NCBI GenBank assembly: GCA_964639215.1 | Contig: CAZXCV010000006.1 | Coordinates: 410 to 64,409, forward strand | DNA from: an uncultured Staphylococcaceae bacterium | GTDB lineage: Bacteria; Bacillota_I; Bacilli_A; RFN20; CAG-826 | Length of the DNA stretch: 64,000 nucleotides | Direction of reading: 5' to 3' | Shown: one piece after another, positions 3,589 to 61,103 of the stretch | How the letters are laid out: each line of letters starts with the position of its first letter | Position numbering within the stretch: position 1 is the first letter of the stretch | Notes under the pieces: generated by a model | Told to the model about the DNA's origin: nothing | Databases searched by the model: none | The model's input: the letters and a program-made list of their open reading frames with translations, nothing else | Position numbers and translations under genes: made by a program

Positions 3589-4686
3589 ATGAAAGTTCTT
3601 TTTGTCTTTGCCCATCCGGCGCCTTATAAAATCGATTTATTCAATGGGCTTGTCCCACACATGGATTTGACTGTTGTTTTCGAACGACATGCCAGTGGCT
3701 TTCGGCATCCGTTTTTTTATGATCGGACCCAATATAACTTCCGCACTATTTTCCTACGCGGTATTAATCTTGGCGCTGAAAATCATTTCTCATGTGAGTT
3801 AATCCGTCACTTGCGAAAAAATGAATATGATTTAATTATCATGAATGGTTACTCCTCATTAACAGAAATCATTACCATCCGCTATTTGCTTCGTATGAAA
3901 CGCCATTACGTTCTTTATGTGAATGGTGGTGTCGTCCATGAGGACCCACCATGGCGTTATAAATTGAAACGGCAACTCGTCAGTGGAGCATCCCACTATT
4001 TTGCACCCACAACCTATGTCGATGATTACTTATGTCACTATGGGGCGCAAAAGGACAAAATCATCCATTACCCATATGCGACGATTTATACTCATGACAT
4101 CTTAAAAAAAGCACGATCCGCGATTGAAAAAAACAACTTTTGGAAAAAATTAAATATCAATAAGGGGCCCGTGTTTATCAGCGCCGGACAATTCGTCGAT
4201 CGAAAAAATAATATCCGCGTTTTGCAAATTTGGGAAAAGCGTCCAAACAACAATCAATTGCTACTTGTGGGATCTGGACCCGATGAAAAGAAATATCGTG
4301 ATTATATTGCAGCACATCACCTTGATAACGTGACGATTATGCCCTATCAAAAACGCGACCAGTTATTAAACATGATGGGTTACGCCACGGGCTTCATCAT
4401 CTTAAGTAAAGAGGATATTTACGGACATGTGATCAATGAATCATTGTCTCAGGGATTACCAGTCATCAGTTCACGACGTGTCATGGCAGCGCTTCATCTC
4501 ATCACTCAAGGAGAAAATGGATTTCTTGTTGACCTCGATGATGAAGATGTCATCCATGGTGCAATTACCTCATTAATCAAAGAAGACCGTTATGAATCAT
4601 GTGTAAATACCGCGAAAAATCAAACGATTGAAGCAATGGTGACTCAGCACCTCGATAGCTTCGAAAAATTATTAACATGCGAATAA
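3589..4686 (+). CDS. Glycosyltransferase, GT-B fold (group 1 / GT4-like)
   Basis: 365 aa. C-terminal GT1 region (GLPVISS...ENGFLVD). Confidence 0.55.
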   Translation: MKVLFVFAHPAPYKIDLFNGLVPHMDLTVVFERHASGFRHPFFYDRTQYNFRTIFLRGINLGAENHFSCELIRHLRKNEYDLIIMNGYSSLTEIITIRYLLRMKRHYVLYVNGGVVHEDPPWRYKLKRQLVSGASHYFAPTTYVDDYLCHYGAQKDKIIHYPYATIYTHDILKKARSAIEKNNFWKKLNINKGPVFISAGQFVDRKNNIRVLQIWEKRPNNNQLLLVGSGPDEKKYRDYIAAHHLDNVTIMPYQKRDQLLNMMGYATGFIILSKEDIYGHVINESLSQGLPVISSRRVMAALHLITQGENGFLVDLDDEDVIHGAITSLIKEDRYESCVNTAKNQTIEAMVTQHLDSFEKLLTCE

Positions 4687-5825
4687 TATATTTAACTAAT
4701 TCAATGCTGACTGACGATTTTGACGAGCTGAATGCCAAAGTTAAAATTAAGGCTAACCCCAGCAATCAAAACTTTCATCGTCGTTTGATTCGTGCGTTTG
4801 GCACGGAGTATCAAGTAAGCGTCATTTCGTATCGAGCATTGGTCGCTTACAACGAACCAGCTTTCTTGCCTCATGAATGGAAACGCCAGCAAAAAATCAC
4901 ATATCATTATTTGCCTGTCTATAACCGTAAATACATCAAACAAAAACGGATTGTTGATGATGGCATGAAACTGATTAATGAGTTTTCGGAGATCAAACGT
5001 CATCCAAACGCCATTCTAGTCGTTGATGCGATTAATGGCACACTCCGTCGACTCGCCCTTAAAGCCAGAAAGAGATTTCACATTAAGACACTGGCAATTG
5101 TGACAGATAACCCATTGCTTCTTAGTGGAGCTAACAAAAAATCAGCGACCAGCGCCATCAAAGAAATGCAACAATTCGACTATTATTTATCCTTGACCGA
5201 AGCACTTGATGTCATGGCTAATCCACACCACCGGCCTCATCTAAACTTTCCTGGTGTGATTGAAGATCGTAAATGTTTTTCCTCATACCCCCGACCTTAT
5301 TTATTTTTTGCGGGGGCGATGCACGAGCGTTATGGCGTCAATAATCTCATCACCGCATTTATGAATACGACTTATGATGTCGATTTGTTAATCGCGGGTC
5401 ATGGGCCGAGTCACTTTGTCGAGCAAAGCACCCTAAAAGACAAACGCATTAAGTTTATCGGACAACTTACTCAAGAAGCTACTTATAAATATGAAGCCGG
5501 ATCATTATTGAACATTAACCCTCGTCCTTACGATCGGAAACTTGATATCTTCTCGGTACCGAGCAAATTTTTTGAATATATGACAAGTGGCGCACCGACA
5601 ATGTCAACTGAACATAGCCTCTTAACACCACAATTTCAAAAATTAGCAATCTGGGCCGGTCAAGGTTCAATTATGGAAATAAGAACGGCATTAATTGAAT
5701 TTATGGAAATGTCACCAGCAAGTCGTGACCGAATGGCTAAAAGAGCCAAAGAAGCCGTATTAACGGAATTTGGGATTGAAGCAATCGCCAAGAAACTTAA
5801 TCAATTTATAAGTTCTCTCAAATAA
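4677..5825 (+). CDS. Glycosyltransferase-like protein (GT-B fold, divergent)
   Basis: 382 aa. Overlaps the upstream GT by 10 nt (co-transcribed). Loose GT-B features; specificity unknown. Confidence 0.35.
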   Translation: MRIIYLTNSMLTDDFDELNAKVKIKANPSNQNFHRRLIRAFGTEYQVSVISYRALVAYNEPAFLPHEWKRQQKITYHYLPVYNRKYIKQKRIVDDGMKLINEFSEIKRHPNAILVVDAINGTLRRLALKARKRFHIKTLAIVTDNPLLLSGANKKSATSAIKEMQQFDYYLSLTEALDVMANPHHRPHLNFPGVIEDRKCFSSYPRPYLFFAGAMHERYGVNNLITAFMNTTYDVDLLIAGHGPSHFVEQSTLKDKRIKFIGQLTQEATYKYEAGSLLNINPRPYDRKLDIFSVPSKFFEYMTSGAPTMSTEHSLLTPQFQKLAIWAGQGSIMEIRTALIEFMEMSPASRDRMAKRAKEAVLTEFGIEAIAKKLNQFISSLK

Positions 5826-6985
5826 TCCTCAAGTTTACGCCCGATTTTTTCGAGTGTGAAATGCTGATTAAAATATGATTGATTACGCGCTCCAAGCGCG
5901 TTTTTTTCTGCATCTGTCAATGAAATTAATGTTTGAACACCTTCGATGAAACCATCAACAGTCGGTGCAACGATTATTCCACCTCCCGCTTCGCGTAAAA
6001 CATTAGCCCCATCACCTGCAATCGCTCCGATAATCGGACGTCCAAAGCCGAGGTACATGATTAGTTTATTAGGAATTGTTTGACCGACATAACCACCATC
6101 CTTAAGAGCAACAACAACTGCGGTCGCCTTAGGAATATATGCCACGGCTTCAGCGCTTTTTAACGTTCCATAATAATGAATTCGTGCGCTTAATTGATGC
6201 GTTTTAATAAATTCTTGAATTCGCGGCCATGCCGTTCCATAACCAATTAAATGAAGATGAACATTATCTGATAATCTTTCCATCGCCGATACAAGTTCAT
6301 CAAGTAACTGTACTTGGCCGATATTACCGATATAAACGAGATTATATGGGGCTTCATAAGTAATTGGTGCAAGTTTAAGTTCACTTGTAAGTGCCGGTTG
6401 CACTAATACATTGAGTTTATTCGCATCGAGGTGATGCTCTTTAATCATGTACTCTTGATAAGAGGGGGAACCGACTAGCAAGCGATCCGCCGCTCGATAT
6501 ATACGCTGTGACCACGATTTAAGAATTTGATACGCCAGGGTGTCGCGTTGAATATAGTTAGTGAATACCGCTGATTCGGGCCAGATGTCAACGCAATATA
6601 ACATTAATGGCAATTTGTGTTTTCTCGCAAAATCAATCGCGGGTACTAATGAGATAACGGGCGATAAACTCATGCCAAAGACGATGTCATAATTACCTTG
6701 ATGTTTTCTGGCGAACTGACGACCACGGAAATAATAAGAAAAATAATTGATGATAAGACCTAAACGGCCTGGACGCCGAGCAACAATCGGTAAACGATGA
6801 ACCTTAACCCCATCGAGTATTTCAAATGAGCAGTTTTTATATTCAGGTAAGATACGACCAAAGCCAGCATTAGGACGTCCCGTGACCACCGTAACTTGAT
6901 GGCCTTGGGCGACTAATTGCCGCATTAATGGTGTAATCGTGAAATTTTCTGGGTAGTAAAATTGACAAAATGTTAGAATGTTCAT
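5801..6985 (-). CDS. Glycosyltransferase family 4 (WbuB/GT1-like)
   Basis: Starts at MNILTFCQFYYPE (internal Met at 6985; the ORF extends to 7042). Typical GT4 N-terminus and C-terminal GT1 domain (GFGRPIIGAIAGDGANVL). Confidence 0.6.
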   Translation of the reverse strand: MNILTFCQFYYPENFTITPLMRQLVAQGHQVTVVTGRPNAGFGRILPEYKNCSFEILDGVKVHRLPIVARRPGRLGLIINYFSYYFRGRQFARKHQGNYDIVFGMSLSPVISLVPAIDFARKHKLPLMLYCVDIWPESAVFTNYIQRDTLAYQILKSWSQRIYRAADRLLVGSPSYQEYMIKEHHLDANKLNVLVQPALTSELKLAPITYEAPYNLVYIGNIGQVQLLDELVSAMERLSDNVHLHLIGYGTAWPRIQEFIKTHQLSARIHYYGTLKSAEAVAYIPKATAVVVALKDGGYVGQTIPNKLIMYLGFGRPIIGAIAGDGANVLREAGGGIIVAPTVDGFIEGVQTLISLTDAEKNALGARNQSYFNQHFTLEKIGRKLEDYLRELIN

Positions 6986-7120
6986 AATCGAATTTATTTT
7001 AACGAACAATTTGTAATTTGGCGATGTAATTCGTATTAACATATAAATATTCTTAAAGATATCGTTAAATTTATAGTCACTTATTAATTACCTATACCAG
7101 TGACGCAATAATTTGCGATA

Positions 7121-8068
7121 ATGATATGGATTAAAAAACTAGGACCAATGAATCGTAAATTTCGCAAACTCAACCCAATCCAACGCTATGTGTTCGCTCC
7201 AATCCGCGCCATGATGCGCCAATTTTTTCCAGTCACCCTTGTCAAGTGGCAGTATCGTTATTTGACACGCCACCGCCTTGATCTTAAACATCCAACCCGC
7301 TATACAGAGAAATTGCAGTATTTACGATTATTCGTTTATCCCAATGACCCGCTTGTAATCCAGTGTTCCGACCGTGTTACCGTCAGGGATTACGTTGCAA
7401 GATTAGGATATTCCGCCTATCTCATCGAAAGTTATGGTAGCCATGAGACGATTGCGAGTGTTGATTTCTCAAATCTTCCCGATCAATTCGTCATGAAATG
7501 TTCTCATGCTTGCGCCTTTAATCTAATTGTGACAAACAAAAATAATCTTGATATCCCGATGATGCATAACCAATTTGGTAAATGGTTAAAAACGGATTAT
7601 GGAAAGCTGACGATTGAACGTCATTATAGTCGCACAAAACCACGCGTTCTCATCGAAAAATACCTCGGAAATGGAAGCGACCTTCCTATCGAGTATAAAA
7701 TTCATGTGTTTAATGGCAAGGCTCGCAATTTATATGTTGTTACAGGACGCGGACAAGACATTCGTTATACCAATTTTTACATCGATTGGACTCCGTTTGA
7801 CGGGAGCCAATTCAATGGATGGCGAAAAGATGAACATCCACTTAGCAAGCCCGACAATTTTAATGATATGGTGGCTTTCGCTGAAGCGCTCGCAGCCCCA
7901 TTTCCATTCGTTCGGGTTGACCTATACTCGATAGATGGTAAAATATTTTTTAGTGAAATGACATTCACGCCCGCTAAAGGAACGTTATTATTAGATGACG
8001 ATCAGGTAGACTTTGAAATGGGTGCGTGGCTTGACATCTCAAACTATCTTGAAGGAGCAAATAAATGA
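7121..8068 (+). CDS. ATP-grasp fold amidoligase, TupA-like (teichuronopeptide-type)
   Basis: 315 aa. The middle region (KCSHACAFNLIV...EYKIHVFNGKARNLYVVTGRG...FYIDWTPFD) resembles the TupA-like ATP-grasp family. Confidence 0.45.
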   Translation: MIWIKKLGPMNRKFRKLNPIQRYVFAPIRAMMRQFFPVTLVKWQYRYLTRHRLDLKHPTRYTEKLQYLRLFVYPNDPLVIQCSDRVTVRDYVARLGYSAYLIESYGSHETIASVDFSNLPDQFVMKCSHACAFNLIVTNKNNLDIPMMHNQFGKWLKTDYGKLTIERHYSRTKPRVLIEKYLGNGSDLPIEYKIHVFNGKARNLYVVTGRGQDIRYTNFYIDWTPFDGSQFNGWRKDEHPLSKPDNFNDMVAFAEALAAPFPFVRVDLYSIDGKIFFSEMTFTPAKGTLLLDDDQVDFEMGAWLDISNYLEGANK

Positions 8069-8859
8069 AGAAACGCTCACTATTAATCGCCCTTGGCATG
8101 ATTGCGTTAACATCATGTGGCCAAGACGTAGCTTTAGCGCTTGAACGCACGACTTACCACACGGCGACATTTGCCGATAATATGTATCAAGACACCGTGC
8201 TATCAACGACGTTAGCACCAGCTCATATTGCTAATAAAATGACATACACTGTCACAAGGGATGATCTAATCACCGGCGTTACGAATGTTAACGAAACTGA
8301 TCGCTACGTCACTGTTAATGGGACACCGACGCTCGTTAACGACGATTTGTTTGCAACCACATATAAACTCTCTAATAGTTTAACTGATGTTAAATACGGT
8401 TTTGAAAGCAAATTATTTGATGGCATTCTCCATTGTAGCGATGCAATCCGCATTAGTAAAAGCCGCTTACAAATTCAGGCGTCTGGATTTGGCTATGTAT
8501 TTAATACTCCGCTACAATCTGCTAACTTGCTTGGTGTATATTTAAAAGCTGGCGCGGATACATTTTCTGGCGGTGTCGCCATCACCGATGTGCGTGTTAA
8601 ACTGTCTTACTATTTACCAACCACTAATCTTGAATTCATCCAACACGAATTCAATCTTGATGTTTTCGGGATTCGGAGACTTGATTTTCCCCAATTCTAC
8701 GGTTTTTATTTAACGGATGTTGCCCCATCATTATCGCTTCAAGGAGCGACTGCTGTCAGCGTTCAATATGAAATACTCGATGCGGCCGCCCAAGCAAGCG
8801 ATCCGCATTATACCGCAATTTTTGTCTATGAAGTAATGTTACCAAAAAGCACTTGGTAA
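8065..8859 (+). CDS. Lipoprotein, unknown function
   Basis: Signal peptide with lipobox LTSCGQ. Start overlaps the ATP-grasp stop (ATGA coupling). Confidence 0.5.
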   Translation: MKKRSLLIALGMIALTSCGQDVALALERTTYHTATFADNMYQDTVLSTTLAPAHIANKMTYTVTRDDLITGVTNVNETDRYVTVNGTPTLVNDDLFATTYKLSNSLTDVKYGFESKLFDGILHCSDAIRISKSRLQIQASGFGYVFNTPLQSANLLGVYLKAGADTFSGGVAITDVRVKLSYYLPTTNLEFIQHEFNLDVFGIRRLDFPQFYGFYLTDVAPSLSLQGATAVSVQYEILDAAAQASDPHYTAIFVYEVMLPKSTW

Positions 8860-8862
8860 TTA

Positions 8863-10272
8863 TTAAGCGAGCGGAACTTCTTCTTCAGGCGAACTAGTAA
8901 CAACGACTGGTTCGCTTTTTGTTTCTAATTGTTTATTGCTCTTAACATAAGCATAGCCAACTAAGAAAACGACTAAGAGACTATACAAATCAGAAAAATG
9001 TGGTAGCTTATAAATTCGTTGCCCTTCGCGAACAAATGGTGCGTACTCATAATGGAAAAGCGATACAACCGCGTATGTCAAAGCAAACAAAATGACAAGC
9101 ATCTTTAAATGGTGGGCATCCTGACTATTTTTGTAGTAGCGAATTAATGTATACCCGCTAAAACCCATAAAGGCAAGATAGCCAAAGGCGGCAAAATAGC
9201 CACCTTGATAGAGCGAATCAAACACAGCGCTCCCTGTTGATTCCATAAATCGATTGCCAATGATGATGGGGTGGAGTCCACCAAATGGGTGATTTATCGA
9301 CGCCTGGATAACTTCGGCATAACTGACGACGATACTATTACCAAAAACACGATTTAAAATCGCATTATTAGTTACGAGATTGACAAAAAACGGAACCTCA
9401 AACGCATAAAGTAACAGTGAAACTGCCGCCAGAGAAAAGATTCCCATAGCAACATAAAGGCCATAATTCAATATTTTGAGCCAGCGTTTATCACGAGGAT
9501 AAAACTTAACCATTAAAGCGACAATGATGGCTGGAATGAGAAATTTGATTGCTGAAAAATATGGTAGAAATATAATCGCGATTAATCCGATGCCGCCAGA
9601 TACGATCCAAAAATAGTCAAACGTTGATATTTTTTTAAACGGTATAAAAAGTAGGCCTAATAGGAGTGGTGCGAGGATGATCGCATTATTCACGAAAAAG
9701 GCCGTCGTCACTTCTTTAAATTCAAATCCGAATAACCATTTCGCTTCATTTGAAATCATGTAGGCTTCGCCATCAAAATAAAGTGCCTGTCCAGTAAATC
9801 GTGTCACATAGAAAAATGTGTAGCGCCACATTGTATAAATTAAGGAAATGGCTAATACCGCGGCAATACCGGCAAATATTGTCGCGAGGGCTTTTTCAAT
9901 TTTAAATTCCTGTTCGTAAGCCATGGCGATGCCGATTAATACGAATGAGAAAAACGATAAAATCATCGCAAGATTATCAATGAACGTTTGTAAGATAAAA
10001 TATAGTGGTGAAAAGGCCATGAAGAGGCTATAAGCCGCTAATGGTAGCAAAAGCACCAATCCGACATTAAGCCAATCTTCCTTTTTGTATTGCAGTAAAA
10101 CAAGCGGAAACAGTGCCAGAGCAAAGATGATTGAAAGATAGCGGAAAAGCATTCCAAAGTTAGCTAAATTGAGACTTGTAAATAAGAGTAATTCAAGGGC
10201 AAGAAACGCAAGGAGCGAGCCATATTTATGACGGTATTTTTCTAAGATTGTTCGATTCATTACCAATAACAT
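8863..10272 (-). CDS. Polytopic membrane protein, O-antigen ligase/Wzy-like oligosaccharide polymerase candidate
   Basis: 469 aa with at least 10 predicted TM helices and a larger loop in the C-terminal half. Last gene of the patatin operon. Ends 3 nt from the convergent lipoprotein gene. Confidence 0.3.
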   Translation of the reverse strand: MLLVMNRTILEKYRHKYGSLLAFLALELLLFTSLNLANFGMLFRYLSIIFALALFPLVLLQYKKEDWLNVGLVLLLPLAAYSLFMAFSPLYFILQTFIDNLAMILSFFSFVLIGIAMAYEQEFKIEKALATIFAGIAAVLAISLIYTMWRYTFFYVTRFTGQALYFDGEAYMISNEAKWLFGFEFKEVTTAFFVNNAIILAPLLLGLLFIPFKKISTFDYFWIVSGGIGLIAIIFLPYFSAIKFLIPAIIVALMVKFYPRDKRWLKILNYGLYVAMGIFSLAAVSLLLYAFEVPFFVNLVTNNAILNRVFGNSIVVSYAEVIQASINHPFGGLHPIIIGNRFMESTGSAVFDSLYQGGYFAAFGYLAFMGFSGYTLIRYYKNSQDAHHLKMLVILFALTYAVVSLFHYEYAPFVREGQRIYKLPHFSDLYSLLVVFLVGYAYVKSNKQLETKSEPVVVTSSPEEEVPLA

Positions 10273-11222
10273 CCTTTTTCCACTTTTTCAGCACCTTGAG
10301 GCTTAGTGACTGGGCGTGTCCAGGAACTCGTGACATAACGCGTCACGTGCTGGCGTTTTTCCCATCTTTTTCCCATTATACCAAATAATAATTGGGTCGC
10401 CCCTCCAGTTTGTATCGCTTGTTTATTTAAACTCTTAATAAACCAACATAAATGCGTTCCATAAGCACCAGCTCCAATGAGGGCAACATCAAATTCATGT
10501 TTGACGATTTCAACCTTCAAATAATCGAGCGCTTCAAACCAATTGTGGAAGCGTTCATCGTACTGGTTACCAATTGTTTGCACAGCTTCAATGGTTATTA
10601 AGGTAAACTCTGGTAACACGGTTTCATTTTGTATAATTGCGCGACGATTCGCGTATTGTTGTTCAATTAATTGTGCAAATGGTGAGATGACAAGGACTCG
10701 TTTCCCCTTTAATGCCGAGGTCCAATCGCCCATTAGTGGCTCAAAGGCATTGTATTGAATGACTTTGGCATGCGGAATATATTTACGATAAAAATAATCT
10801 TCCATATGAATGCCGGAGATACCTAAAATATCGGTTTTTGGTAGTTCTTTGAGATAATGGGAGCAGTAGTAATTTAGATTGGCATCGGTGGTTGGAAAAA
10901 AGCCGGCATTGTTTTTCATTGAATATTTGACGAGTTTCTTATAATCGTGACGCCATCCAAATTGAATCTTCTCATAATTATTGAGACAGCTCATTTCCGT
11001 CGCTCCAAAGCGAATGGCGGCAAAAGGAATGCCGCTTTGGATGGCGTGTTTCAAGATTTCATTGCTATGTTCTTGCGTAATTCCCACGATGCCAACAAAC
11101 CGTTCGACACCTTTTTTTCGATGGAAGAGTTTCCAAAGCAAAACAAACCATGCATTTTTCAAAAAATAAGCAAAATAAGTTATTTTTTTACGATAAGGTA
11201 CTAGCGCTGCCATACTATGCAA
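10260..11222 (-). CDS. Hypothetical protein, possibly a GT-D/DUF1792-like glycosyltransferase
   Basis: 320 aa soluble protein, translationally coupled on both sides (8 nt and 13 nt overlaps). The family assignment is a guess from vague recollection. Confidence 0.25.
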   Translation of the reverse strand: MHSMAALVPYRKKITYFAYFLKNAWFVLLWKLFHRKKGVERFVGIVGITQEHSNEILKHAIQSGIPFAAIRFGATEMSCLNNYEKIQFGWRHDYKKLVKYSMKNNAGFFPTTDANLNYYCSHYLKELPKTDILGISGIHMEDYFYRKYIPHAKVIQYNAFEPLMGDWTSALKGKRVLVISPFAQLIEQQYANRRAIIQNETVLPEFTLITIEAVQTIGNQYDERFHNWFEALDYLKVEIVKHEFDVALIGAGAYGTHLCWFIKSLNKQAIQTGGATQLLFGIMGKRWEKRQHVTRYVTSSWTRPVTKPQGAEKVEKGCYW

Positions 11223-12435
11223 TCAGTCGATAAAAAATTGCCGCAAAATAAAGCTCTGGATAATGCGCGGCTAACATGTCTTTGGTTGCTTCAGGTAATT
11301 CTAATTTTTCTTTAGCGATTTGTTTAATCATCCCAAATCGCATCGCTGTCTTCATTTTTAATAATCGGAATTGTTGCTCACCTGGTCGTTTCGATAACCA
11401 ATTCGTATGATGTTGGTTTCCACTAATCGATTGTTCGATTTCTTGACGCATGCTTGGTATCTCATAAATTTTTAATGGGTCAAGATCAACGGCTTCAGCG
11501 ATAACTTCCAAAAACCGCAAATACTTTGTGCGCTCTGTCATTGTTTCATGAATTTTACTCGTTAAGAAGAAATTAAGATCCTCACTTCCGGTCCGTTCGA
11601 TAATTTTGATCACTCGAGCGGCTTCATTATCAAATGCGTTGCTAATCTTAAACGTGTACTTATAGCCGAGAAATTTCCCGAATTTTTTCATCGTGTCCAA
11701 ATAACCTAAGCGCATGTTACGAGCCATCACATCGCTACGAATCATCAAAAATGGTCCTAGATGATGATAGCTGCGGATATATGTAACGTTTGATTTATCG
11801 AGATGTTCGGGATGACTATATTGGGTGGTATTTAAGTCGACAGCAATCACGTGATCAGCGCCCAAGCGAAAGGCAAAATCGATAGGTAGTCGATCATGAT
11901 AGGCACCATCAATATATTGTTCCTCGCCAATTGTCGTCACAGGGAAAGCCGGATAACAACTAGCGCTTGCCAGCAAATAATCGGCAATTTCTTCTTTTCG
12001 TATTTTTTTAATGTCGATATCTTTTCCAACCATTTTTGGGTATGTGGCGACGGTCACGCCGAATGCGATTGGCGAAGCCAAGAGTTTCTCGACATCGAGA
12101 CATTCAGCAATTAGGGTTTTGAATGGGCTAATATCAATCCCACGGTTTTTTATGTATGAAGTGATGAATTTAAACAATTCTTTCTTATCGCTTCGTAATA
12201 TCTCGTCAAGGTCAAGGTTAATCCCATGCTTCATGACTTTTTTTAGTTCAAGATTGTGCCACAAACGTTCAAGCATCGGTAAATCGCCTGTCGTCATGAT
12301 TGCACCATTCAACGCTCCAATCGAAGCGCCCGTTATGATATGATATGGAATTTTTAATTCCTTAATTGCTTGAAAGAAACCAACCTGATATGCTCCTTTG
12401 GAGCCACCGCTACCAAGTGCTAATCCAAGTTTCAT
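11215..12435 (-). CDS. Patatin-like phospholipase with a roughly 150 aa C-terminal extension
   Basis: Oxyanion motif GSGGSKGAYQVG, nucleophile elbow GASIGA, catalytic Asp in IDGAY. Confidence 0.75.
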   Translation of the reverse strand: MKLGLALGSGGSKGAYQVGFFQAIKELKIPYHIITGASIGALNGAIMTTGDLPMLERLWHNLELKKVMKHGINLDLDEILRSDKKELFKFITSYIKNRGIDISPFKTLIAECLDVEKLLASPIAFGVTVATYPKMVGKDIDIKKIRKEEIADYLLASASCYPAFPVTTIGEEQYIDGAYHDRLPIDFAFRLGADHVIAVDLNTTQYSHPEHLDKSNVTYIRSYHHLGPFLMIRSDVMARNMRLGYLDTMKKFGKFLGYKYTFKISNAFDNEAARVIKIIERTGSEDLNFFLTSKIHETMTERTKYLRFLEVIAEAVDLDPLKIYEIPSMRQEIEQSISGNQHHTNWLSKRPGEQQFRLLKMKTAMRFGMIKQIAKEKLELPEATKDMLAAHYPELYFAAIFYRLIA

Positions 12436-13721
12436 TGCTCTGCCCCCTGCTTTATTAAATTAATAAATTTACTCTGAATCAATAATAACATGACATACGT
12501 AAGGATGTATTTGGATTTATAAGAAATCCAATTCGTGATGTCTCGACCATGGAATTGCGTCTCAAGAACATATTTAAGTGCGTTGATAGCCCCGAGTTCT
12601 TCTTCATCCGTTAATGTTTGTCGTTCTTTAATTTTTCTCAATAGTGAGACAACATCGCGAGTAACGAATGTTGCATCAATCATGTCATAGATTAGTTGCG
12701 TGATTTTCGAGATTTCATAAATTGGTTCTGGACTAATTTTTAATGTTTCGGCAATCACTTCTAACCCACGGAGAAATAAATGTCCATCTGGAATCCTTCC
12801 TTTAGTGTGCCTTTTCAATAATCTGAGGATGCCGCCTAATTGAGATGGATATTTATCCTTAATCATTTGAAGTAATTGGATTTCGAGATCGGCAAGATTA
12901 GGTGTTGGTTTGAACGTGTAGCGATATCCAATCATCGGCCCGATTTTTTTCATCGTGTCGTTATATCCGAGTGAACGGTTTCTGTCAATCATCGCTTGAT
13001 CAAAATTGAACGGAGCCCCGAGATTCCACGAAGGTTCAACGTTAATGACATCCTGGCGACGATTCAATAATGGATGCCATGTGATTTTATAAAATAGATT
13101 AACGGCAATGACTTGCTGTGCCCCCAGTTTAAAAGCAAATCGAATTGGCAAAGTGTCTTTATATCCTCCGTCAATGTACGTTTTCTTTTTGATTGTTCGG
13201 ACAGGAAATAACGGCCAGATTGCACTGCTGGCAAATAGCCAATCATAAACATCTTCATCATCAACATTACGCATCTCAATATTTCGTTGAACGAAAAATG
13301 GTAATTCAACAGCTACGATTCCAAATCGTGGCGTCGTGTTTTTAATTTCTTCAGGGCTGATGCTTGACTTGATTAATTCGATAAATGGTGTGATATCAGC
13401 GCCACGGTTTTTTATATATCTTTTTGTAAAAGTAATGATTTTTTGCCGGTCTTTTTGAAATGTTTTACGCAACTGCACCCAGTCAAAATTCAACCCGTCC
13501 TTCATAACTTTTTCGGGTGAAACATCTTGCCATAACGAGTGCGCAACCTCATATTTGTTTGCCGCCATAAACGCCCCAATCAATGCGCCGATTGAGGTAC
13601 CGGTAATCACATCTGGTTGAATCTTGAGGTCGCGCAAAGCTGTCCATACGCCCATTTCATATGAGCCGAGTGACCCGCCACCACCAAGTGCGATACCGAT
13701 TGTTTTTTTAATATCAACCAT
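12432..13721 (-). CDS. Patatin-like phospholipase (paralog of the downstream gene)
   Basis: GGGGSLGSYEMG, GTSIGA, IDGGY. ATGA overlap with the downstream patatin gene. Confidence 0.75.
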   Translation of the reverse strand: MVDIKKTIGIALGGGGSLGSYEMGVWTALRDLKIQPDVITGTSIGALIGAFMAANKYEVAHSLWQDVSPEKVMKDGLNFDWVQLRKTFQKDRQKIITFTKRYIKNRGADITPFIELIKSSISPEEIKNTTPRFGIVAVELPFFVQRNIEMRNVDDEDVYDWLFASSAIWPLFPVRTIKKKTYIDGGYKDTLPIRFAFKLGAQQVIAVNLFYKITWHPLLNRRQDVINVEPSWNLGAPFNFDQAMIDRNRSLGYNDTMKKIGPMIGYRYTFKPTPNLADLEIQLLQMIKDKYPSQLGGILRLLKRHTKGRIPDGHLFLRGLEVIAETLKISPEPIYEISKITQLIYDMIDATFVTRDVVSLLRKIKERQTLTDEEELGAINALKYVLETQFHGRDITNWISYKSKYILTYVMLLLIQSKFINLIKQGAEQ

Positions 13722-13785
13722 TGATTTATTATATCACCTATCTCCGAAATCTCCTGATGGTATAATGTCATAAAAGGGATAAATT

Positions 13786-29808: not shown

Positions 29809-31887
29809 TTAGTCTTCGACTTCAGCAGCGAATTTATCGCGGAAGTATGCGACTTGGTCACTTGTTAACACCGTGGTGTAAACAACGACGAATTTGAATT
29901 TGTCAGCACTATTTCCATAAAGTGTATTTGGAATCGTGCGTGGTTGAATCTTCGAGACGGAGACCGATGTTCCAGCGGAGTACGGTTTCATGAACGGGAT
30001 AATGACCGCGTCTTCAAAGATTAACTGATACTCAGCGGCGGCATAAGCTTCAAACCGATCTTCAAGATCGACGATAGCATCAGCAGCAGCGAGTAAGGCA
30101 TCGTATTCGCCAAGAACTGTTTGGGCAAGTGTCGGATCAGTTAAACCTAAGTTCGGCGTTAAGTCGCCACCAATCTTGAATGTATTTAAGAAGGTGGAAG
30201 GATCACCGTAGTCTGGTCCCCAACCGAAGTTGCCAATTTGCATTGAATAGTGATAGTTGTAGAAAGCGTTAGTTGATGTAGCAGTAGTACGAATCCTATT
30301 ATCGAGCACTTGGAACGGAGCACTATTATAAGTGACGGTACCAATTGAGTTGGTAATCGAATTCACAACGGCCGTGTAGTAAGGCGTCAAGTTGGCATTT
30401 TGTAAGAACCAGTATTCAGCCTTAATTGGGAAGGTAACGCCAGCAGCTTGAAGTTGTGGAATCGCGAGGACCATTTCGGCTTGTGCCGCTGTTACATTGC
30501 GGTATCCCGCTGTTCCAGGAGCGATTAAAGCACGAGCTGCTTCGACGGTAATCGATTTTTCTTCAGCATACTTTTCGTACATGTATTCAACATAGTCTTT
30601 ACCATTACTATCAACGACTAAGCCGTTAATCGTATAGAGGTGGGTTGTCCAATCGTTTGGTGAACTTGGAGTCCGACGAGCATTGAGTGCTCCTTTGTCA
30701 ATACCAAGCATGTAGGCGCGACGGAAGTGTTTGTTTGCCATTGCTTTTTCAAGGTTAGTGACTTCGGCTTCAGTCAAATCGGTATCCACGAGTGGACGCG
30801 GACGTTTGTAGTTGAAACTCATATAGTAGGAAGCATAGTAGTTCGTTCCAACTGTGGTATAGGCGTTTGGATGAGCTGGATTTTCTTTCGTTCCAGTACC
30901 AGCGGCACCTTCAACGTATTTTTCCCAGCCGGCGGTATCGTTTTGACTAACGGTGAAACCGTCAATAACGCCAGATTCAAATTGCATACGTGCCCAGTTG
31001 AAGTCAGCATCTTCAGGGACATAAGTGTGAAGAACTTGATCAACTTTAACATTGTGAGCTTCCCAGTATTTGGGGTTCTTTAAGTAAATCATAGCGTTGC
31101 TTTCAACGTATGATTGCAGTAAGAATGCTCCGTTATAAGCGATTTTGTGTTGCGCTTGGCTTGGAGTCGTAATGACACCATAGCTATCCCAACCACCAAT
31201 GTCTTGAACGAATTGACGGCTAATTGGGAAGAAGACGGAGTAAGTAAGAACTGTTGGGAAGTAGCTCATAGCTTTTGGTAAGGTGAATTGAAGCGTATCG
31301 TCATCAACCGCTTTAACACCGACCGTTGCAAAATCTGGTTTTGCATTACTTGAATCTTCTTGATGTGCAGCCATGGCTGTGTAATAGTCTTCGGCGCCAT
31401 CAATGAACATGAAGTAGAGGTAGACAACTTCTGAAGCGTTGATTGGATCAAGCGCTTGTTCGGCGGCATAAACCCAGTCATCAGCTTTCACTGGTAATAG
31501 TGTTTGACCATAAGCATTAACCCAATTGGTGTCACGGATTTCAAACGTCCATTTTTGTTTGCCGCTTGCTAGGTCTTCAAATGACCAGGATTCCGCGAGT
31601 GATGGAACGATTCGCCCATGGACATCGTTCTCAACAAGCCCATCAATAAAGTTAGCGATGTGCTGCGAGTTGGGTTGTTCGTTAGTCTTGACACTATTGA
31701 ACGTCGTCGGATTGGTTCCAAATGTCGTCCTGTATGTCAATGAGAGTGCCAAACCTTCTGGTATCTCACTTGATGCCGGTACTTGTGATGACGATGATGG
31801 TACCGATGACACTGGGGACGATCCGCATCCAGCCATTAAAATAACAGCGAGGGGTGCGATTAAGAGCCCGAAATAGTGCTTTCTCAT
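29809..31887 (-). CDS. oppA: Oligopeptide-binding lipoprotein OppA (family 5 SBP)
   Basis: 692 aa. Lipobox LMAGCGSS, Ser-rich linker, SBP_bac_5-like body. Confidence 0.75.
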   Translation of the reverse strand: MRKHYFGLLIAPLAVILMAGCGSSPVSSVPSSSSQVPASSEIPEGLALSLTYRTTFGTNPTTFNSVKTNEQPNSQHIANFIDGLVENDVHGRIVPSLAESWSFEDLASGKQKWTFEIRDTNWVNAYGQTLLPVKADDWVYAAEQALDPINASEVVYLYFMFIDGAEDYYTAMAAHQEDSSNAKPDFATVGVKAVDDDTLQFTLPKAMSYFPTVLTYSVFFPISRQFVQDIGGWDSYGVITTPSQAQHKIAYNGAFLLQSYVESNAMIYLKNPKYWEAHNVKVDQVLHTYVPEDADFNWARMQFESGVIDGFTVSQNDTAGWEKYVEGAAGTGTKENPAHPNAYTTVGTNYYASYYMSFNYKRPRPLVDTDLTEAEVTNLEKAMANKHFRRAYMLGIDKGALNARRTPSSPNDWTTHLYTINGLVVDSNGKDYVEYMYEKYAEEKSITVEAARALIAPGTAGYRNVTAAQAEMVLAIPQLQAAGVTFPIKAEYWFLQNANLTPYYTAVVNSITNSIGTVTYNSAPFQVLDNRIRTTATSTNAFYNYHYSMQIGNFGWGPDYGDPSTFLNTFKIGGDLTPNLGLTDPTLAQTVLGEYDALLAAADAIVDLEDRFEAYAAAEYQLIFEDAVIIPFMKPYSAGTSVSVSKIQPRTIPNTLYGNSADKFKFVVVYTTVLTSDQVAYFRDKFAAEVED

Positions 31888-32153
31888 AGTTTTACCTCCT
31901 TATGAATATAGAAAACTAATTTATTCCCGCACTACCGGAGAATAAGATAGCGTTATTTTACGATAGGGATGTATGATTGTCAATAAAACGAAGTAATAAA
32001 TAAATATGACATAATCGGTATTTTTTAATAAAAAAAAGACTTTTTTGTTATTTATTTCTCATTTTTTATCGATAATGAATACTAATATTTGTTTTTTTGT
32101 TGTGTATGTTTCCGCTTTCATATATATTATTTTTCGTCCGAGGAGGCGAAAAA

Positions 32154-32561
32154 TTGTTTTATTGGAAGAACATATTATATGGATTTATCGCTGCAGTGGT
32201 CATAACTTTGATTACTTTTTTAGCGTTTGTGATCGTCTTCCCCGACCTTTATGGCGTTAATCGCTATTTCTATTGGGGAAATTCCATTGTTTTATTTACC
32301 TTTTTTGGTGTCATCGGCGCTGCATTTGTCAATTGGTCAACCACGCGTCGGATCCAAAAAGTCACAAAAAATCGCTATCAAAAAATCACTTGGGAACATC
32401 CAGATAAAATCAAGTATTACAATACCAATCGCGCCATGTATTGGATTGGGATTTGGGGTGCTCTAATATATTCGCTTCTTTATGCACTAGACATCATTCG
32501 CCTTGACTTAGACCAATTTGGGACTGTTATTCGGATTTTATTGATTCTATTAAATTATTAA
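32154..32561 (+). CDS. Small membrane protein (4 TM), unknown
   Basis: TTG at 32154 preceded by GAGGAGG. The ORF is listed from 32097. Confidence 0.3.
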   Translation: MFYWKNILYGFIAAVVITLITFLAFVIVFPDLYGVNRYFYWGNSIVLFTFFGVIGAAFVNWSTTRRIQKVTKNRYQKITWEHPDKIKYYNTNRAMYWIGIWGALIYSLLYALDIIRLDLDQFGTVIRILLILLNY

Positions 32562-32593
32562 TGCGCGCACGTGAAGGCGCTTATACTGATCAT

Positions 32594-32624
32594 TAAAAAA
32601 GAGACACGGGCGTGTCTCTTTTAT
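32594..32624. terminator. Bidirectional rho-independent terminator (htpG / small ORF)
   Basis: AAAAAAGAGACACG-GGC-GTGTCTCTTTT. Confidence 0.7.
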
Positions 32625-32625
32625 C

Positions 32626-34548
32626 TTATTCTTTTGGTGATGTTTCAATCATGAGTTCAATCATAGTGTTTGAAAATTCAAGGGGATTTTCTAACGGGAA
32701 ACCCTCGATTAATAATGCCTGTGAATATAATAGATCAGCGTATTTAGCGAGGCGCATTGGGTCTTTGAGATACAATCGCTCTAACGCTTTGAAAAGTTCG
32801 TGATGGGGATTAATCTCAAGAATGCGTTCTGCTTTGGGTTTTTGTTCTTGATTCGTTTGTTGTAAAACTTTTTCCATCTCAAACGAAACGCCCTCACCAC
32901 TCACGAGACATACGGGTGAATCAGCAAGGCGTTTGGAGATAACGACATCACTGACCTTACCAGCTAATAACTCTTTGATTTTGTCTAGGAGCGATTTTTT
33001 CTGTTCTTTGAGTTCGTTATATGTCTTTTGTTCGTCTTTACTTAAATCATCAAATGCGCCTTGATTAATCGATTTAAATTTTTTGCCATCGTATTCATCA
33101 AGGATTGATAGTGCAAATTCATCGATATCATCGCTTAAAACGAGCACGTCATAACCTTCTTTTTTAATGCGGTCCATCTGCGGCATTGCCTTGACGGCAT
33201 CCTTGGTTTTCGCCGAAGCAAAATAAATGGCTTTTTGGTCCTTTTTCATCGCCTCGACATATTTCTTAAGTGTAATTGGTTTTTCTTCGTTGAGCGTTGC
33301 GTAAACAAGCAAATCTTTTAATGAATCTTTTTTAATCCCAAATAGTTCGTACAAACCATATTTTAAGTTGATGCCATATAATTTAAAAAATTCGAGGTAT
33401 TTATCGTAATCACTCGTTTTAAGTTTTTCAAGCTCGTTGAGGATTTTCTTTTCAAGTGCTTCGGCAATCTTAGCAATTTGTTTATTTTGTTGCACCATTT
33501 CTCGGGAAATATTGAGTGAAATATCGGGCGAGTCAACGAGCCCTTTCATAAATCGTAAATAGTTAGGCACTAAATCTTTGCAGGCATCCATGATGAAGAC
33601 GCCTTTCGCGTAGAGTTTTAATCCACGTTCATAAGATTCATCATATAAGTTGTAAGGTGGATGACTGGGAATAAAGAGTAAGGCACTATAAGAAATGAGA
33701 CCTTCGACATTGACAAAGAAACTCTTTAATGGTCCCTCATAATCCGAAAATTTATTTTTGTAGAAATCAGTCAAAGCTTCATCAGTGACTTCGCTTCTAG
33801 TTTTTCGCCACAAAGGAATCATCGAATTTAGTGTTTCGAGAACAACTTTTTTTACATATTTGCCTTCGATTGGCTTGCCCTCTTTATCGAGTTTTGCCAC
33901 TTCTTGTTCGTTTTCCATGTTGATGGGATAGCGAATGTAGTCAGAATATTTTTTAACGAGATTTCTAATGGTATGCGCTTCGAGAAATTCATCGTATTTA
34001 TCTTCATCTTGATTGTCGCGCAAATATAGCGTAATCACGGTACCAACGCCATCTTTTTCAATTTCTTCAATCGTATAGCTTTCAGTGCCGTCGCTACTAA
34101 AGCGATAGGCTTTGTCACTCATGGGCGATTTTGTTTCGACAATGACTTTCTTTGCTACCATGAACGCGCTATAGAAACCGACCCCAAATTGACCGATGAG
34201 TTCCGCTTCGGTTTTAATTTTTTCGTCCGAAACTTTTTTTAAAAACTCGCGCGATCCACTCGCGGCAATCGTACCAAGATTATCGTTAAGTTCATCATAG
34301 GTCATACCAATGCCATTATCGGCGATCTTTAACCACCGTTTCTTTTTGTTTGATTCAAGGCGAATTTCATAATCGCTACGTTTGGGTAATTTTTCATCAG
34401 TTAACGATAAGACGTGATACTTATCAATCGCATCCGAACCATTGGAAATAAGCTCACGTAAAAATATTTCGCGATTCGTATAGATAGAATGAACCATTAA
34501 TTCGAGTAATCGTTTCGATTCCGTTTTAAAAAGTCGTGTTTCTGCCAT
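32626..34548 (-). CDS. htpG: Molecular chaperone HtpG (Hsp90)
   Basis: 640 aa. N-terminal GHKL ATPase motifs LISNGSDAIDK, IGQFGVGFYSAFMVA. Confidence 0.9.
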   Translation of the reverse strand: MAETRLFKTESKRLLELMVHSIYTNREIFLRELISNGSDAIDKYHVLSLTDEKLPKRSDYEIRLESNKKKRWLKIADNGIGMTYDELNDNLGTIAASGSREFLKKVSDEKIKTEAELIGQFGVGFYSAFMVAKKVIVETKSPMSDKAYRFSSDGTESYTIEEIEKDGVGTVITLYLRDNQDEDKYDEFLEAHTIRNLVKKYSDYIRYPINMENEQEVAKLDKEGKPIEGKYVKKVVLETLNSMIPLWRKTRSEVTDEALTDFYKNKFSDYEGPLKSFFVNVEGLISYSALLFIPSHPPYNLYDESYERGLKLYAKGVFIMDACKDLVPNYLRFMKGLVDSPDISLNISREMVQQNKQIAKIAEALEKKILNELEKLKTSDYDKYLEFFKLYGINLKYGLYELFGIKKDSLKDLLVYATLNEEKPITLKKYVEAMKKDQKAIYFASAKTKDAVKAMPQMDRIKKEGYDVLVLSDDIDEFALSILDEYDGKKFKSINQGAFDDLSKDEQKTYNELKEQKKSLLDKIKELLAGKVSDVVISKRLADSPVCLVSGEGVSFEMEKVLQQTNQEQKPKAERILEINPHHELFKALERLYLKDPMRLAKYADLLYSQALLIEGFPLENPLEFSNTMIELMIETSPKE

Positions 34549-41444: not shown

Positions 41445-41473
41445 AAAAACCGGCAAATCCGGTTTCTTTTTTT
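41444..41473. terminator. Bidirectional terminator shared by lplA and the pdh operon
   Basis: AAAAAAACCGG-CAAAT-CCGGTTTCTTTTTTT. Confidence 0.7.
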
Positions 41474-42845
41474 AAATATGAATTGGTTTATTTACGATTC
41501 CGTGCGTGACTTCGTGGATCATTTCCGATAATGATGGGTGTGGATGAATCGTCGCCACAATTTCTTCGGCGGTCGCTTCCATCACCATCGCTAGTGATGC
41601 CTCAGTAATCATTTCCGTCGCTGAAGCTGCAAAAATGTGCACGCCAAGTATCTCACCATATTTGCGATCGACGATGATTTTTACAAGACCGTCTTTTTCA
41701 TTTTCCGCCAGCGCTTTGCCATTAGCGACCAAGGGAAAGGTCGAAACTTTATAGTCCAGTTCTTGGGCCTTGGCATCTTGTTCTGTCATTCCTACCTGGG
41801 CGATTTCTGGGAAGGTATATATACCTGCGGGAATAATTTTAAAATCGAGCGGATGTTCAATCCCGTGAATATGTTCAACCGCGACAATTCCTTCACGCGA
41901 AGCAACATGAGCGAGCATGTGAAATCCAAGGACATCACCAATCGCATAAACATCAGCAACCGATGTCCGCATCAAGTTATCAACCTTAATCCCAGTTTTC
42001 GACATTGCTAAATTGAGCTTTTCATAACCCTTAGTGTTTGGGCGCATGCCTGTCGCTAGTAAGATTAGATCAGCTTCAAGTCTTGTTTCGACACCGCCTT
42101 TATTGCAGACAATGCCAGTATCCGTAATTTCCACAATATTGGCGCCGGTGATTAAGGCAACACCATCTTGAACAATTTTTTTGAGGAAGAGATTTCGGAT
42201 TTCATCGTCGACCGTCACTAATGGTGTTGCCTCTCGTTCTAAGACTTTAACGTGGACACCTAACGTATTGAAGATTGTCGCAAACTCCATACCGATAACG
42301 CCACCACCAATAACAATTAGCGATTTTGGTAATGTTGTTTTGGTAAGAATCTCTTTGCTTGTAACAACAAACCCTTTTTCATAGGCATCTTTTAAACCTT
42401 TGATTGGGGGAAAGGCCGGGCTCGCCCCTGTCGCAATAATGAGTTTATTCGTTTCAAGCTGTTCATTATTAACGAGTACATGATGGGCATCAATTGCTTC
42501 AGCATAACCTTCATAAACAGTCACACCATTTTTCTTTAATAAACCACGAACGCCACCAGTAAGTTTTTTGACAATTCCATCTTTTCTTTGCACCATCTTC
42601 GGGTAATCGATGTTAACTTGGTCAAAATCAAGATTAATTCCATAATCATCACTATGTTTTAAGGTGTCATAAACCTTCGCGCTTTTAAGCATCGCTTTGG
42701 TCGGGATGCAACCCCAATTAAGGCAAACCCCACCAACAGCTTCTCTTTCAATTAGGGCGACCGACATTCCTAACTGTGCCGCTTTAATTGCCGCCACATA
42801 ACCGCCGGGTCCACCCCCAATAATTGTTACATCATATTTTTTCAT
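41472..42845 (-). CDS. pdhD: Dihydrolipoyl dehydrogenase (E3)
   Basis: GGGPGGYVAA FAD motif, redox-active CLNWGCIPTK, HPHPSLSE C-terminal motif. Confidence 0.85.
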   Translation of the reverse strand: MKKYDVTIIGGGPGGYVAAIKAAQLGMSVALIEREAVGGVCLNWGCIPTKAMLKSAKVYDTLKHSDDYGINLDFDQVNIDYPKMVQRKDGIVKKLTGGVRGLLKKNGVTVYEGYAEAIDAHHVLVNNEQLETNKLIIATGASPAFPPIKGLKDAYEKGFVVTSKEILTKTTLPKSLIVIGGGVIGMEFATIFNTLGVHVKVLEREATPLVTVDDEIRNLFLKKIVQDGVALITGANIVEITDTGIVCNKGGVETRLEADLILLATGMRPNTKGYEKLNLAMSKTGIKVDNLMRTSVADVYAIGDVLGFHMLAHVASREGIVAVEHIHGIEHPLDFKIIPAGIYTFPEIAQVGMTEQDAKAQELDYKVSTFPLVANGKALAENEKDGLVKIIVDRKYGEILGVHIFAASATEMITEASLAMVMEATAEEIVATIHPHPSLSEMIHEVTHGIVNKPIHI

Positions 42846-42852
42846 CGCTAAC

Positions 42853-44172
42853 CTACTTCATCTGGAGCATCATGCTCGCTGGATCTTTTAAGTATTGTCG
42901 TAAGCGTAATAAGAAACGTCCGCCATCCGCTCCATCGATAATGCGATGGTCAATCGTTAAAGATAACGGTAAGACTTCACTAATAGCAATCACACCTTGT
43001 TCGTTAACAATTGGCTTTTTATAAATCGAACCAACACCTAAGATGGCAACCTCGGGATGTTTAATGACTGGTGTTCCAAATTTTGTTCCAAAGGCGCCAT
43101 AATTAGTAATCGTAAATGTGCCTTCTTGTAAATCGACTAATTTTATTTTCCGTTCGCGTGCTTCATCTGCTAACCGTTCAATTGCTTTTGCCAAATCAAT
43201 GATTGATTTACCATCAGCATCTTTAATGTTTGGCACAATTAAACCATCAGAGGTATCAACAGCAAAACCTAAATTAACACGGTTTTTGAAAATGATTTCT
43301 TCAGTTTCGTGGTCATAACTGCTGTTAAAAATTGGGTATTCTCGTAATGCTAAAGTGATGGCTTTAGAAATATACGCCAAATATGTAAGCTTAACCCCCT
43401 GTGCTTTCATATGTTCTTTTTGTGACTCTCGTAATGAAACAAGGGCACTCACGTCGAACTCATCCATTAAAGTCGTCATCGGGATAATGCTATTAGCAAC
43501 GCTCATGGCATTAACTATTGTTTTTCGTAGTTTCGAAATCTTGACACGAGTGACTTCTTGATCATTGAATGTTGGCATTTTCACAGAAATAGAACTTGTC
43601 GATCCGACCGTCGTTTTTGTTTCTAATGCCTTTCGAATATCTTCCTTCATAATTCGGCCAGCTTCACCACTGCCGATAATCGTCGTGATGTCTACCCCTA
43701 AATCGGCCGCCATCTTGCGGGCAACTGGTGTAGCGAGTACTTTACTGCTTATTATCTTATCTTCGCTTGTGGACGGCATCTCATTTGAAGCGGCAATCAC
43801 TTCATCAGAAACTTCAATCATGCCAACGACACCGGCAGGATTATCTTCTTTCCCTTCGCTTAGAGCCATCGCAATGGGCTTTGGAGTTGATTTTTGAGTT
43901 TCCACATGATCAATTTGTGACGGACTGGTTCCATTTTCATCAATCCACACCAATGTATCTCCAACGTGAATCGTTTCGCCGACTTTGGCGCCAAGTTTAT
44001 GGATCACGCCACTGACTGGCGATGGGAGATCAGCATTTACTTTATCGGTTTCGACAACGACTAGAGGTTTTCCATCTTTAACAGACTCTCCAACCTTCAC
44101 GAGCCATTTTAAAATTTGGCCTTCATGAATGCCTTCGCCAATGTCGGCAAATTTAAATTCATACATACTCAT
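42853..44172 (-). CDS. pdhC: Dihydrolipoamide acyltransferase (E2)
   Basis: N-terminal lipoyl domain (ETDKVNADLPSP), E3-binding domain, catalytic DHRIIDGA. Confidence 0.85.
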   Translation of the reverse strand: MSMYEFKFADIGEGIHEGQILKWLVKVGESVKDGKPLVVVETDKVNADLPSPVSGVIHKLGAKVGETIHVGDTLVWIDENGTSPSQIDHVETQKSTPKPIAMALSEGKEDNPAGVVGMIEVSDEVIAASNEMPSTSEDKIISSKVLATPVARKMAADLGVDITTIIGSGEAGRIMKEDIRKALETKTTVGSTSSISVKMPTFNDQEVTRVKISKLRKTIVNAMSVANSIIPMTTLMDEFDVSALVSLRESQKEHMKAQGVKLTYLAYISKAITLALREYPIFNSSYDHETEEIIFKNRVNLGFAVDTSDGLIVPNIKDADGKSIIDLAKAIERLADEARERKIKLVDLQEGTFTITNYGAFGTKFGTPVIKHPEVAILGVGSIYKKPIVNEQGVIAISEVLPLSLTIDHRIIDGADGGRFLLRLRQYLKDPASMMLQMK

Positions 44173-44177
44173 TCCTC

Positions 44178-45161: not shown

Positions 45162-45165
45162 AGTG

Positions 45166-56604: not shown

Positions 56605-56613
56605 AATTCTACT

Positions 56614-60009: not shown

Positions 60010-60019
60010 GACTTTCTCC

Positions 60020-61099: not shown

Positions 61100-61103
61100 A
61101 TTT

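Follow-up and report, generated by a model that had tools for sequence, protein, structure and literature searches.

A surface-glycan gene cluster with an un-annotated family of membrane proteins and lipase genes added in one lineage of uncultured Bacilli

The closest described counterparts of the locus reported here are the Wzx/Wzy clusters for O-antigen, capsule, and enterobacterial common antigen, and the bacterial patatin-like phospholipases (i.e., the PlpD passenger domain, RssA/YlbK of COG1752, CapV/CapE, VipD, and ExoU). Wzy proteins have 10–14 transmembrane (TM) segments and large outer (periplasmic) loops (PMC12004945), and have diverged so far that routine sequence searches miss them (PMC12004945, PMC12502699). 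[quoted passage not shown] Here, we analyzed a 64,000-nt stretch of contig CAZXCV010000006.1 from an uncultured bacterium of the Bacilli (hereafter, the window), with a focus on positions 8863–13721. This region contains four co-directional minus-strand open reading frames (ORFs) that encode two patatin-like proteins (patatin-1 and patatin-2), a GT-D-like glycosyltransferase (GT), and a 12-TM membrane protein.

Based on gene content, the locus and its neighbors share with Wzx/Wzy clusters several Leloir-type GTs (three GT4, one GT-D-like), a decorating enzyme (TupA-like), one 12-TM protein with two large outer loops and, in 16 related loci only, a Wzx/MOP flippase. Unlike those clusters, the polytopic protein has no detectable Wzy_C, WaaL, or WzyE similarity and no conserved RX10G motif, the 64-kb window contains no Wzx homolog, initiating phosphoglycosyl transferase, or chain-length regulator, the unit includes a conserved lipoprotein of unknown fold, and for part of the host lineage an absence of peptidoglycan is predicted. 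The TupA-like enzyme resembles Cj1438-type amidoligases in its strong PF14305 match and its location in a surface-glycan cluster (PMC11800379, PMC13419641), but it stands alone (315 aa), whereas Cj1438 carries a fused GT2 domain. Similarly, the GT-D-like protein has an above-cut-off PF22882 match in common with GT-D (DUF1792; dGT1 of Streptococcus parasanguinis); however, it lacks a direct sequence match to DUF1792, and its gene is found in a polysaccharide-type cluster instead of a serine-rich-repeat protein glycosylation/aSec locus (PMC5063993). The two patatins share with bacterial patatin-like phospholipases the alpha/beta core, a serine in GxSxG, an aspartate in DG[AG], and an oxyanion loop rich in glycine. 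In contrast to the described phospholipases, they are proteins of ~420 aa that end in an all-helical domain specific to their family, and they have no secretion signal, autotransporter domain, or nucleotide-sensing partner.

We class the region as a surface-glycan gene cluster that includes a membrane-protein family without annotation and, in this lineage, added lipase genes. We regard it as slightly more likely than not that the operon is composite, joining housekeeping-type cytoplasmic lipases to the first genes of a conserved glycopolymer cluster, and it is probably not a dedicated lipase-polymerase machine.

Conserved glycan genes and their linkage to patatin genes

All window genes were mapped onto 47 loci from species-representative genomes that encode relatives of the GT-D-like protein. 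A recurring gene order was found (GT-D-like, membrane protein, lipoprotein on either strand, convergent TupA-like, GT4c, GT4b, and GT4a; hereafter, the module), which is maintained down to 49% GT-D identity. The membrane gene follows the GT-D-like gene in nearly all 47 loci, lipoprotein homologs encoded on one strand or the other lie beside it in most of them, and TupA-like orthologs (49–72% identity) are present in almost all module loci. The three GT4 genes (a, b, and c) are all conserved in module loci, and GTs are encoded alongside the membrane gene in most loci that are long enough to show them. A Wzx/MOP flippase (PF01943) is located between the TupA-like and GT4c genes in 16/47 loci, all from gut-type relatives (e.g., L042, 12255–13799); neither the window nor its close relatives carry one. 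The conserved unit runs beyond 8863–13721, to about position 3589. The hosts of the module are uncultured Bacilli labeled Erysipelotrichales, Mollicutes, Candidatus Enteromonas, or Alloenteromonas (the latter two: L053, L045), bearing out the Erysipelotrichales/Mollicutes-like Bacilli origin suggested in a preliminary description of the region made without database searches. Candidatus Enteromonas and Alloenteromonas belong to family CAG-826 of RFN20 (PMC8035907), and peptidoglycan is predicted to be missing from this family (PMC10868615).

Patatin genes are linked to this module in some sublineages only. Two patatin genes precede the GT-D-like gene in the window’s clade (L001–L003 and L008–L011) and a single one in L006/L023, L012, L017, and L048, whereas about 30 of the 47 module loci have no patatins, with pfk or unrelated genes adjoining the GT-D-like gene. 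The window’s clade has amylase followed by pfk, then aldehyde dehydrogenase on the opposite strand, and then the patatin(s) and the GT-D-like gene; therefore, the aldehyde dehydrogenase and patatin genes look as if they were inserted into, or deleted from, a pfk/GT-D-like adjacency. The reverse comparison used 80 loci of the ~420 aa patatin family, sampled from Lachnospiraceae, Oscillospiraceae, Erysipelotrichaceae, Acholeplasmatales, and Helicobacter. The module is present in 3 and missing from 77 of these loci, and the neighbors are heterogeneous, with the commonest neighbor family occurring in 14/80 loci. Solo patatins and patatin-less modules also occur on separate contigs of the same bin (L099 with L047), likewise in a Candidatus Enteromonas bin (solo patatin in L117; patatin-less L053, whose contig is cut off inside the GT-D-like gene). 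The preliminary description had proposed a dedicated four-gene lipid or lipoglycan module and named four-gene synteny in relatives as its test. These counts weaken that proposal: the glycan part is conserved and lies partly outside the four genes, and the patatins are restricted to some sublineages.

In a neighbor-joining (NJ) tree of the patatin family, built without bootstrap or other support values, all GT-D-linked patatins, including patatin-1, form one clade, implying that the patatin/GT-D-like adjacency arose once. Patatin-2 falls in a different clade, beside solo Erysipelotrichaceae patatins. A recent tandem duplication of the two patatins was also considered and was ruled out by the separate position of patatin-2 in this tree.

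A gene for a DegV/FakB-type fatty-acid-binding protein was observed next to patatins of the same family in two further loci, directly after the patatin in L100 (8290–9150) and near a solo patatin in L007 (12057–12956), which hints that the family acts in fatty-acid or lipid scavenging. In L100, the patatin and DegV genes are followed by a 176 aa ORF and then by the membrane-lipoprotein-TupA genes. No GT-D-like gene was detected in the ~650-nt gap at 9677–10322 of that locus, where it may be lost, degraded, or masked.

Operon layout and encoded proteins

The positions and lengths of the four ORFs were first taken with longest-ORF starts, and later starts were then obtained from orthologous alignments and junction sequences (Table 1). 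All four minus-strand genes of the preliminary description were found at the positions and lengths it gave. Its overlaps of 4, 8, and 13 nt hold with the longest-ORF starts; however, the alignments and junction sequences favor ATG 11213 for the GT-D-like gene and ATG 10260 for the membrane gene, which leave a 1-nt spacer after the patatin-2 TAG and a 1-nt overlap (TAATG) between the GT-D-like and membrane genes. The patatin-1/patatin-2 junction is ATGA, with a GGGGG Shine-Dalgarno-like run before it. Spacing never exceeds 1 nt, and the tight packing holds under either start set, in agreement with the coupled operon described earlier and suggesting co-transcription. In close relatives, the corresponding genes overlap by up to 4 nt or are separated by up to 17 nt. 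At the other end, the membrane gene terminates 3 nt from the stop codon of the convergent lipoprotein gene, and, as first reported, there is no terminator within this gap. A plus-strand terminator-like hairpin (12-bp stem, then the T-tract TTTGTTTCTA) instead sits within the membrane gene, where the 3' end of the coding sequence specifies a non-conserved C-terminal tail, and it would serve the plus-strand TupA-lipoprotein pair. An extended -10-like element (TGATATAAT) upstream of the operon ends 6 nt before the ATG of patatin-1, whose mRNA may thus be leaderless; an alternative candidate -35/-10 pair lies further upstream.

Both patatins match PF01734 (Pfam cut-off: 27.7 bits) with high scores (patatin-1: 100.6 bits, E = 1.7e-28; patatin-2: 85.5 bits, E = 7e-24) and are paralogs, as had been recognized; 38% of their residues are identical over 337 aa (E = 6e-75). 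The GxSxG motif (patatin-1: GTSIG; patatin-2: GASIG) and the catalytic Asp motif (patatin-1: DGG; patatin-2: DGA) of the predicted dyad are present in both, and the catalytic Ser and Asp are invariant across 46 patatin homologs. The full G-G-x-K/R oxyanion motif ascribed to both proteins is found in patatin-2 (GSGGSKG, basic residue kept), but not in patatin-1 (GGGGSLG), which has Leu where K/R is normal. This Leu is frequent throughout the patatin family. The glycine-rich loop is retained.

The AlphaFold2 (AF2) model of patatin-1 (predicted local distance difference test [pLDDT] 93, predicted TM-score [pTM] 0.92) has PlpD, CapV, CapE, VipD, and potato patatin as top Foldseek matches (probability 1.0), which align over the N-terminal core only (the first 280–340 residues). 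The C-terminal domain is all-helical in the model and spans ~170–190 aa (residues ~240 to 429). Neither patatin C-terminal domain has a match in Pfam at E <= 1, nor was one found in the PDB by Foldseek for patatin-1, consistent with the earlier view of an extension of no known family. Because this domain aligns across the whole patatin family, it is a family trait and not locus-specific. Neither patatin has a signal peptide, which in patatin-1 follows from the start of the patatin domain at residue 11. The preliminary description had also named matches to housekeeping RssA/YlbK-type proteins with ordinary neighborhoods as a refuting result, and this is borne out in part. The patatins are not RssA equivalogs (51 and 54 bits against NCBIfam NF007623, cut-off 272 bits, over the first 60–70 residues only), yet they do belong to a widespread family that is generally encoded alone.

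The protein formerly described as an unknown 320 aa product is a GT-D-like glycosyltransferase, as judged from its match to PF22882, the GT-D fold-like domain of Pfam (32.9 bits vs. cut-off 27). All 25 family members tested match this domain (25/25; best E = 7e-11). No match to PDB sequences, DUF1792 included, was obtained with the single sequence or with a 25-sequence profile of the family, and the NCBIfam GT-D_rel model scored 22 bits (cut-off: 75). Distant homologs in Bacteroides sit among GT2, GT4, and WbsX glycosyltransferases.

The membrane protein has 12 predicted TM helices (hydropathy and AF2-model helices), with both termini inside by the positive-inside rule, and two large outer loops at ~147–181 and ~287–354. 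It agrees in this respect with the topology described for Wzy proteins (10–14 TM segments, large extracytoplasmic loops; PMC12004945). Sequence comparisons gave no Wzy or WaaL link. The window protein has no Pfam match even at E = 10, and no Wzy-type, Wzy_C (PF04932), or other Pfam match was found in 99 family members at E <= 1. Profile searches of PDB sequences with the family returned nothing, and hhalign probabilities were 7.9% for E. coli WaaL, 0.15% for WzyE, and 0.15% for WbbH, using single-sequence templates of low sensitivity. The AF2 model is poor (pLDDT 60, pTM 0.62, from 14 aligned sequences), and its Foldseek comparison with the PDB gave noise (best E = 0.77), the model being too poor for an informative fold search. 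Two word-index searches recovered 12–15 relatives, and an exhaustive search identified 243 clusters among 1.84 billion representative proteins, showing a small, compact family. Gly, Phe, and Leu make up most of its conserved residues, together with E23 (88%) in a TM helix and two loop positions, R304 (83% basic) and D348 (77% acidic). There is no conserved His anywhere in the family, in contrast to the conserved loop His/Arg of the WaaL-type ligase. An RX10G motif present in the window’s protein (R146-G157) was examined as a sign of Wzy identity and dropped, because it is not conserved in the family (R146 in 27/120 and G157 in 47/120 sequences). Because Wzy proteins escape sequence searches, these negative searches lower the claim of Wzy family membership but do not speak against a functional analogy. 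The “Wzy-like” label of the preliminary description is thus a candidate assignment drawn from topology and gene context. No literature was found on the membrane-protein family or on a patatin-glycan operon.

Among the other glycan genes, the TupA-like enzyme matches PF14305 with E = 4e-34 (118.6 bits vs. cut-off 25) over model positions 2–238 of 241, and homologs of the lipoprotein have no Pfam match at E <= 1. GT4b and GT4c converge, and their 3' ends share 25 nt (window 5801–5825); the length of this overlap is unchanged in close relatives (L001 15828–15852; L003 15849–15873).

Table 1 Features of the lipase-glycan locus, in window positions.
Feature	Position	Strand	Family or basis	Longest-ORF coordinates
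Patatin-1, 429 aa, predicted cytoplasmic patatin-fold Ser-Asp lipid acyl hydrolase	12432..13721	-	PF01734	13721..12432 (429 aa)
Patatin-2, 406 aa, same family as patatin-1	11215..12435	-	PF01734, paralog of patatin-1	12435..11215 (406 aa)
GT-D-like glycosyltransferase, 317 aa from ATG 11213	10260..11213	-	PF22882	11222..10260 (320 aa), from TTG 11222
Polytopic membrane protein, 465 aa from ATG 10260; candidate glycan polymerase/ligase	8863..10260	-	Topology, gene context	10272..8863 (469 aa)
Lipoprotein, 264 aa, lipobox LTSC	8065..8859	+	Conserved module member, no Pfam match	
TupA-like ATP-grasp enzyme, 315 aa, probable amidoligase	7121..8068	+	PF14305	
GT4 glycosyltransferase c, probable start Met20 (position 6985)	5801..7042	-	Glyco_trans_4_4, Glycos_transf_1	
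GT4-type glycosyltransferase b	4677..5825	+	PF13524, PF00534	
GT4 glycosyltransferase a	3589..4686	+	PF00534, E = 5e-23	
Terminator-like hairpin and T-tract	8887..8927 (hairpin 8887-8917)	+	12-bp stem, then TTTGTTTCTA	
Extended -10-like element TGATATAAT	13728..13736	-	Candidate promoter, read from sequence	
Alternative candidate -35/-10 pair	13810-13783	-	~55 nt further upstream of TGATATAAT	

Proposed pathway and alternative readings

Under the composite-operon reading, the promoter-distal pair (GT-D-like and 12-TM genes) would be the start of a cell-surface glycopolymer cluster of uncultured Mollicutes-related Bacilli, with an overall logic like that of Wzx/Wzy systems. [quoted passage not shown] The promoter-proximal patatins would represent a widespread ~420 aa family, usually encoded alone. 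In this lineage, their genes and the divergent aldehyde dehydrogenase gene would have come to lie between pfk and the GT-D-like gene, with the patatin genes becoming co-transcribed with the latter. Their job is most likely general membrane-glycerolipid turnover or scavenging and less likely a step specific to the glycan pathway, and we infer that the two are not biochemically linked. Several observations weigh against this reading. The single clade of GT-D-linked patatins fits a module-specialized subfamily, the patatin/GT-D-like adjacency survives to 36% patatin and 54% GT-D identity with changed upstream genes (L006), and the junctions are as tight as those of dedicated operons. In addition, nothing positively marks the membrane protein as a polymerase, its AF2 model is poor (pLDDT 60), and the pathway type in the window’s organism is unproven, as neither Wzx nor an initiating phosphoglycosyl transferase is encoded in the window.

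A refined form of the idea in the preliminary description takes the functional link as real, with the patatin-1 clade (and patatin-2 here) deacylating or remodeling the glycerolipid anchor of a lipoglycan, or supplying or clearing lyso- or diacyl-lipid acceptors. A real lipid-anchor link would account for the translational coupling of the genes, and it draws on the tight junctions, the monophyly of GT-D-linked patatins in the NJ tree, and the adjacency kept in several sublineages at 36–41% patatin identity with gaps of 10–92 nt. The module also occurs in the Candidatus Enteromonas/Alloenteromonas genomes (L053, L045) of RFN20 CAG-826, and the polymer there would not be wall-linked and is plausibly lipid-anchored because these bacteria are predicted to lack peptidoglycan (PMC8035907, PMC10868615). 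However, these RFN20 genomes are themselves patatin-less loci, as are most of the module loci (~30/47), 77/80 patatin-family loci have no module, and patatin-2 groups with solo patatins. The patatins are also cytoplasmic, whereas anchoring or ligation would take place outside the membrane. We consider the lipid-anchor link rather unlikely, but plausible if the polymer is a lipoglycan, and it is the main rival of the composite-operon reading. The role of the 12-TM protein is a separate matter. Instead of a Wzy-type polymerase, it may be an exporter, a GT-C-type glycosyltransferase with a polyprenyl-phosphate sugar as donor, or a WaaL-like enzyme that ligates to a lipid anchor, in which case the cluster would be no classical Wzx/Wzy system. 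The missing Wzy_C and O-antigen polymerase matches in the 99 members, the non-conserved RX10G motif, and the absence of Wzx anywhere in the window all point in this direction, and the conserved E23, R304, and D348 would fit a GT-C-like enzyme too. Nevertheless, in the 16 loci that have Wzx, no polytopic protein other than Wzx and the 12-TM protein is encoded, as is usual for a Wzx/Wzy pair; its topology (12 TM helices, two large outer loops) agrees with descriptions of Wzy and WaaL (PMC12004945), and Wzy proteins are routinely missed by sequence searches (PMC12004945, PMC12502699). We consider a non-Wzy function rather unlikely. That the patatins serve as toxins or anti-phage effectors in a defense island, resembling CapV/CapE of CBASS or some similar defense lipase, is extremely improbable. 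Even though CapV and CapE are among the top structural neighbors and weak matches to defense lipase models exist, the structural likeness is that of the generic patatin core, and the scores are far below cut-off (CBASS lipase: 16.9 vs. 200; DS2: 19.9 vs. 400; PADLOC E ~1e-4). There is no adjoining cyclase, CD-NTase, sensor, or other defense gene, the neighbors being the aldehyde dehydrogenase and glycan genes, and synteny with the core metabolic genes pfk, amylase, and aldehyde dehydrogenase is stable in relatives. The earlier exclusion of CBASS-type or other defense patatins is upheld by these results. Lastly, the GT-D-like, 12-TM, lipoprotein, and TupA-like proteins could together form an undescribed lipoglycan assembly system of wall-reduced or wall-less Mollicutes-related Bacilli, with the 12-TM protein as a new class of polymerase/ligase and, in the window’s lineage, the patatin-1 clade as a specialized subfamily remodeling the lipid anchor, a combination that we view as quite unlikely.

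Window surroundings and significance of the locus

Elsewhere in the window, a pyruvate dehydrogenase complex operon and a selenium-linked purine-catabolism gene cluster (YgeY, SsnA, selenium-dependent xanthine dehydrogenase, and a hydantoinase-like gene) occupy 41472–46317 and 52780–63706 and are unrelated to the lipase-glycan locus. Within 30001–34000, the GC fraction falls from 0.444 (30–32 kb) to 0.359 (32–34 kb), against a background of ~0.40.

If the composite-operon reading is correct, the outcome is mainly a correction of annotation: the functional unit would be a nine-gene glycan cluster and not the four genes first reported, and the patatins would be members of a widespread, uncharacterized Firmicutes family. 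The result of most lasting value is the conserved trio of a GT-D-like protein, an un-annotated 12-TM protein, and a lipoprotein in uncultured gut and environmental Bacilli. It defines two families without a Pfam model, one of membrane proteins (243 clusters) and one of lipoproteins, and provides a concrete candidate for surface glycopolymer assembly, including in lineages that are predicted to lack peptidoglycan.

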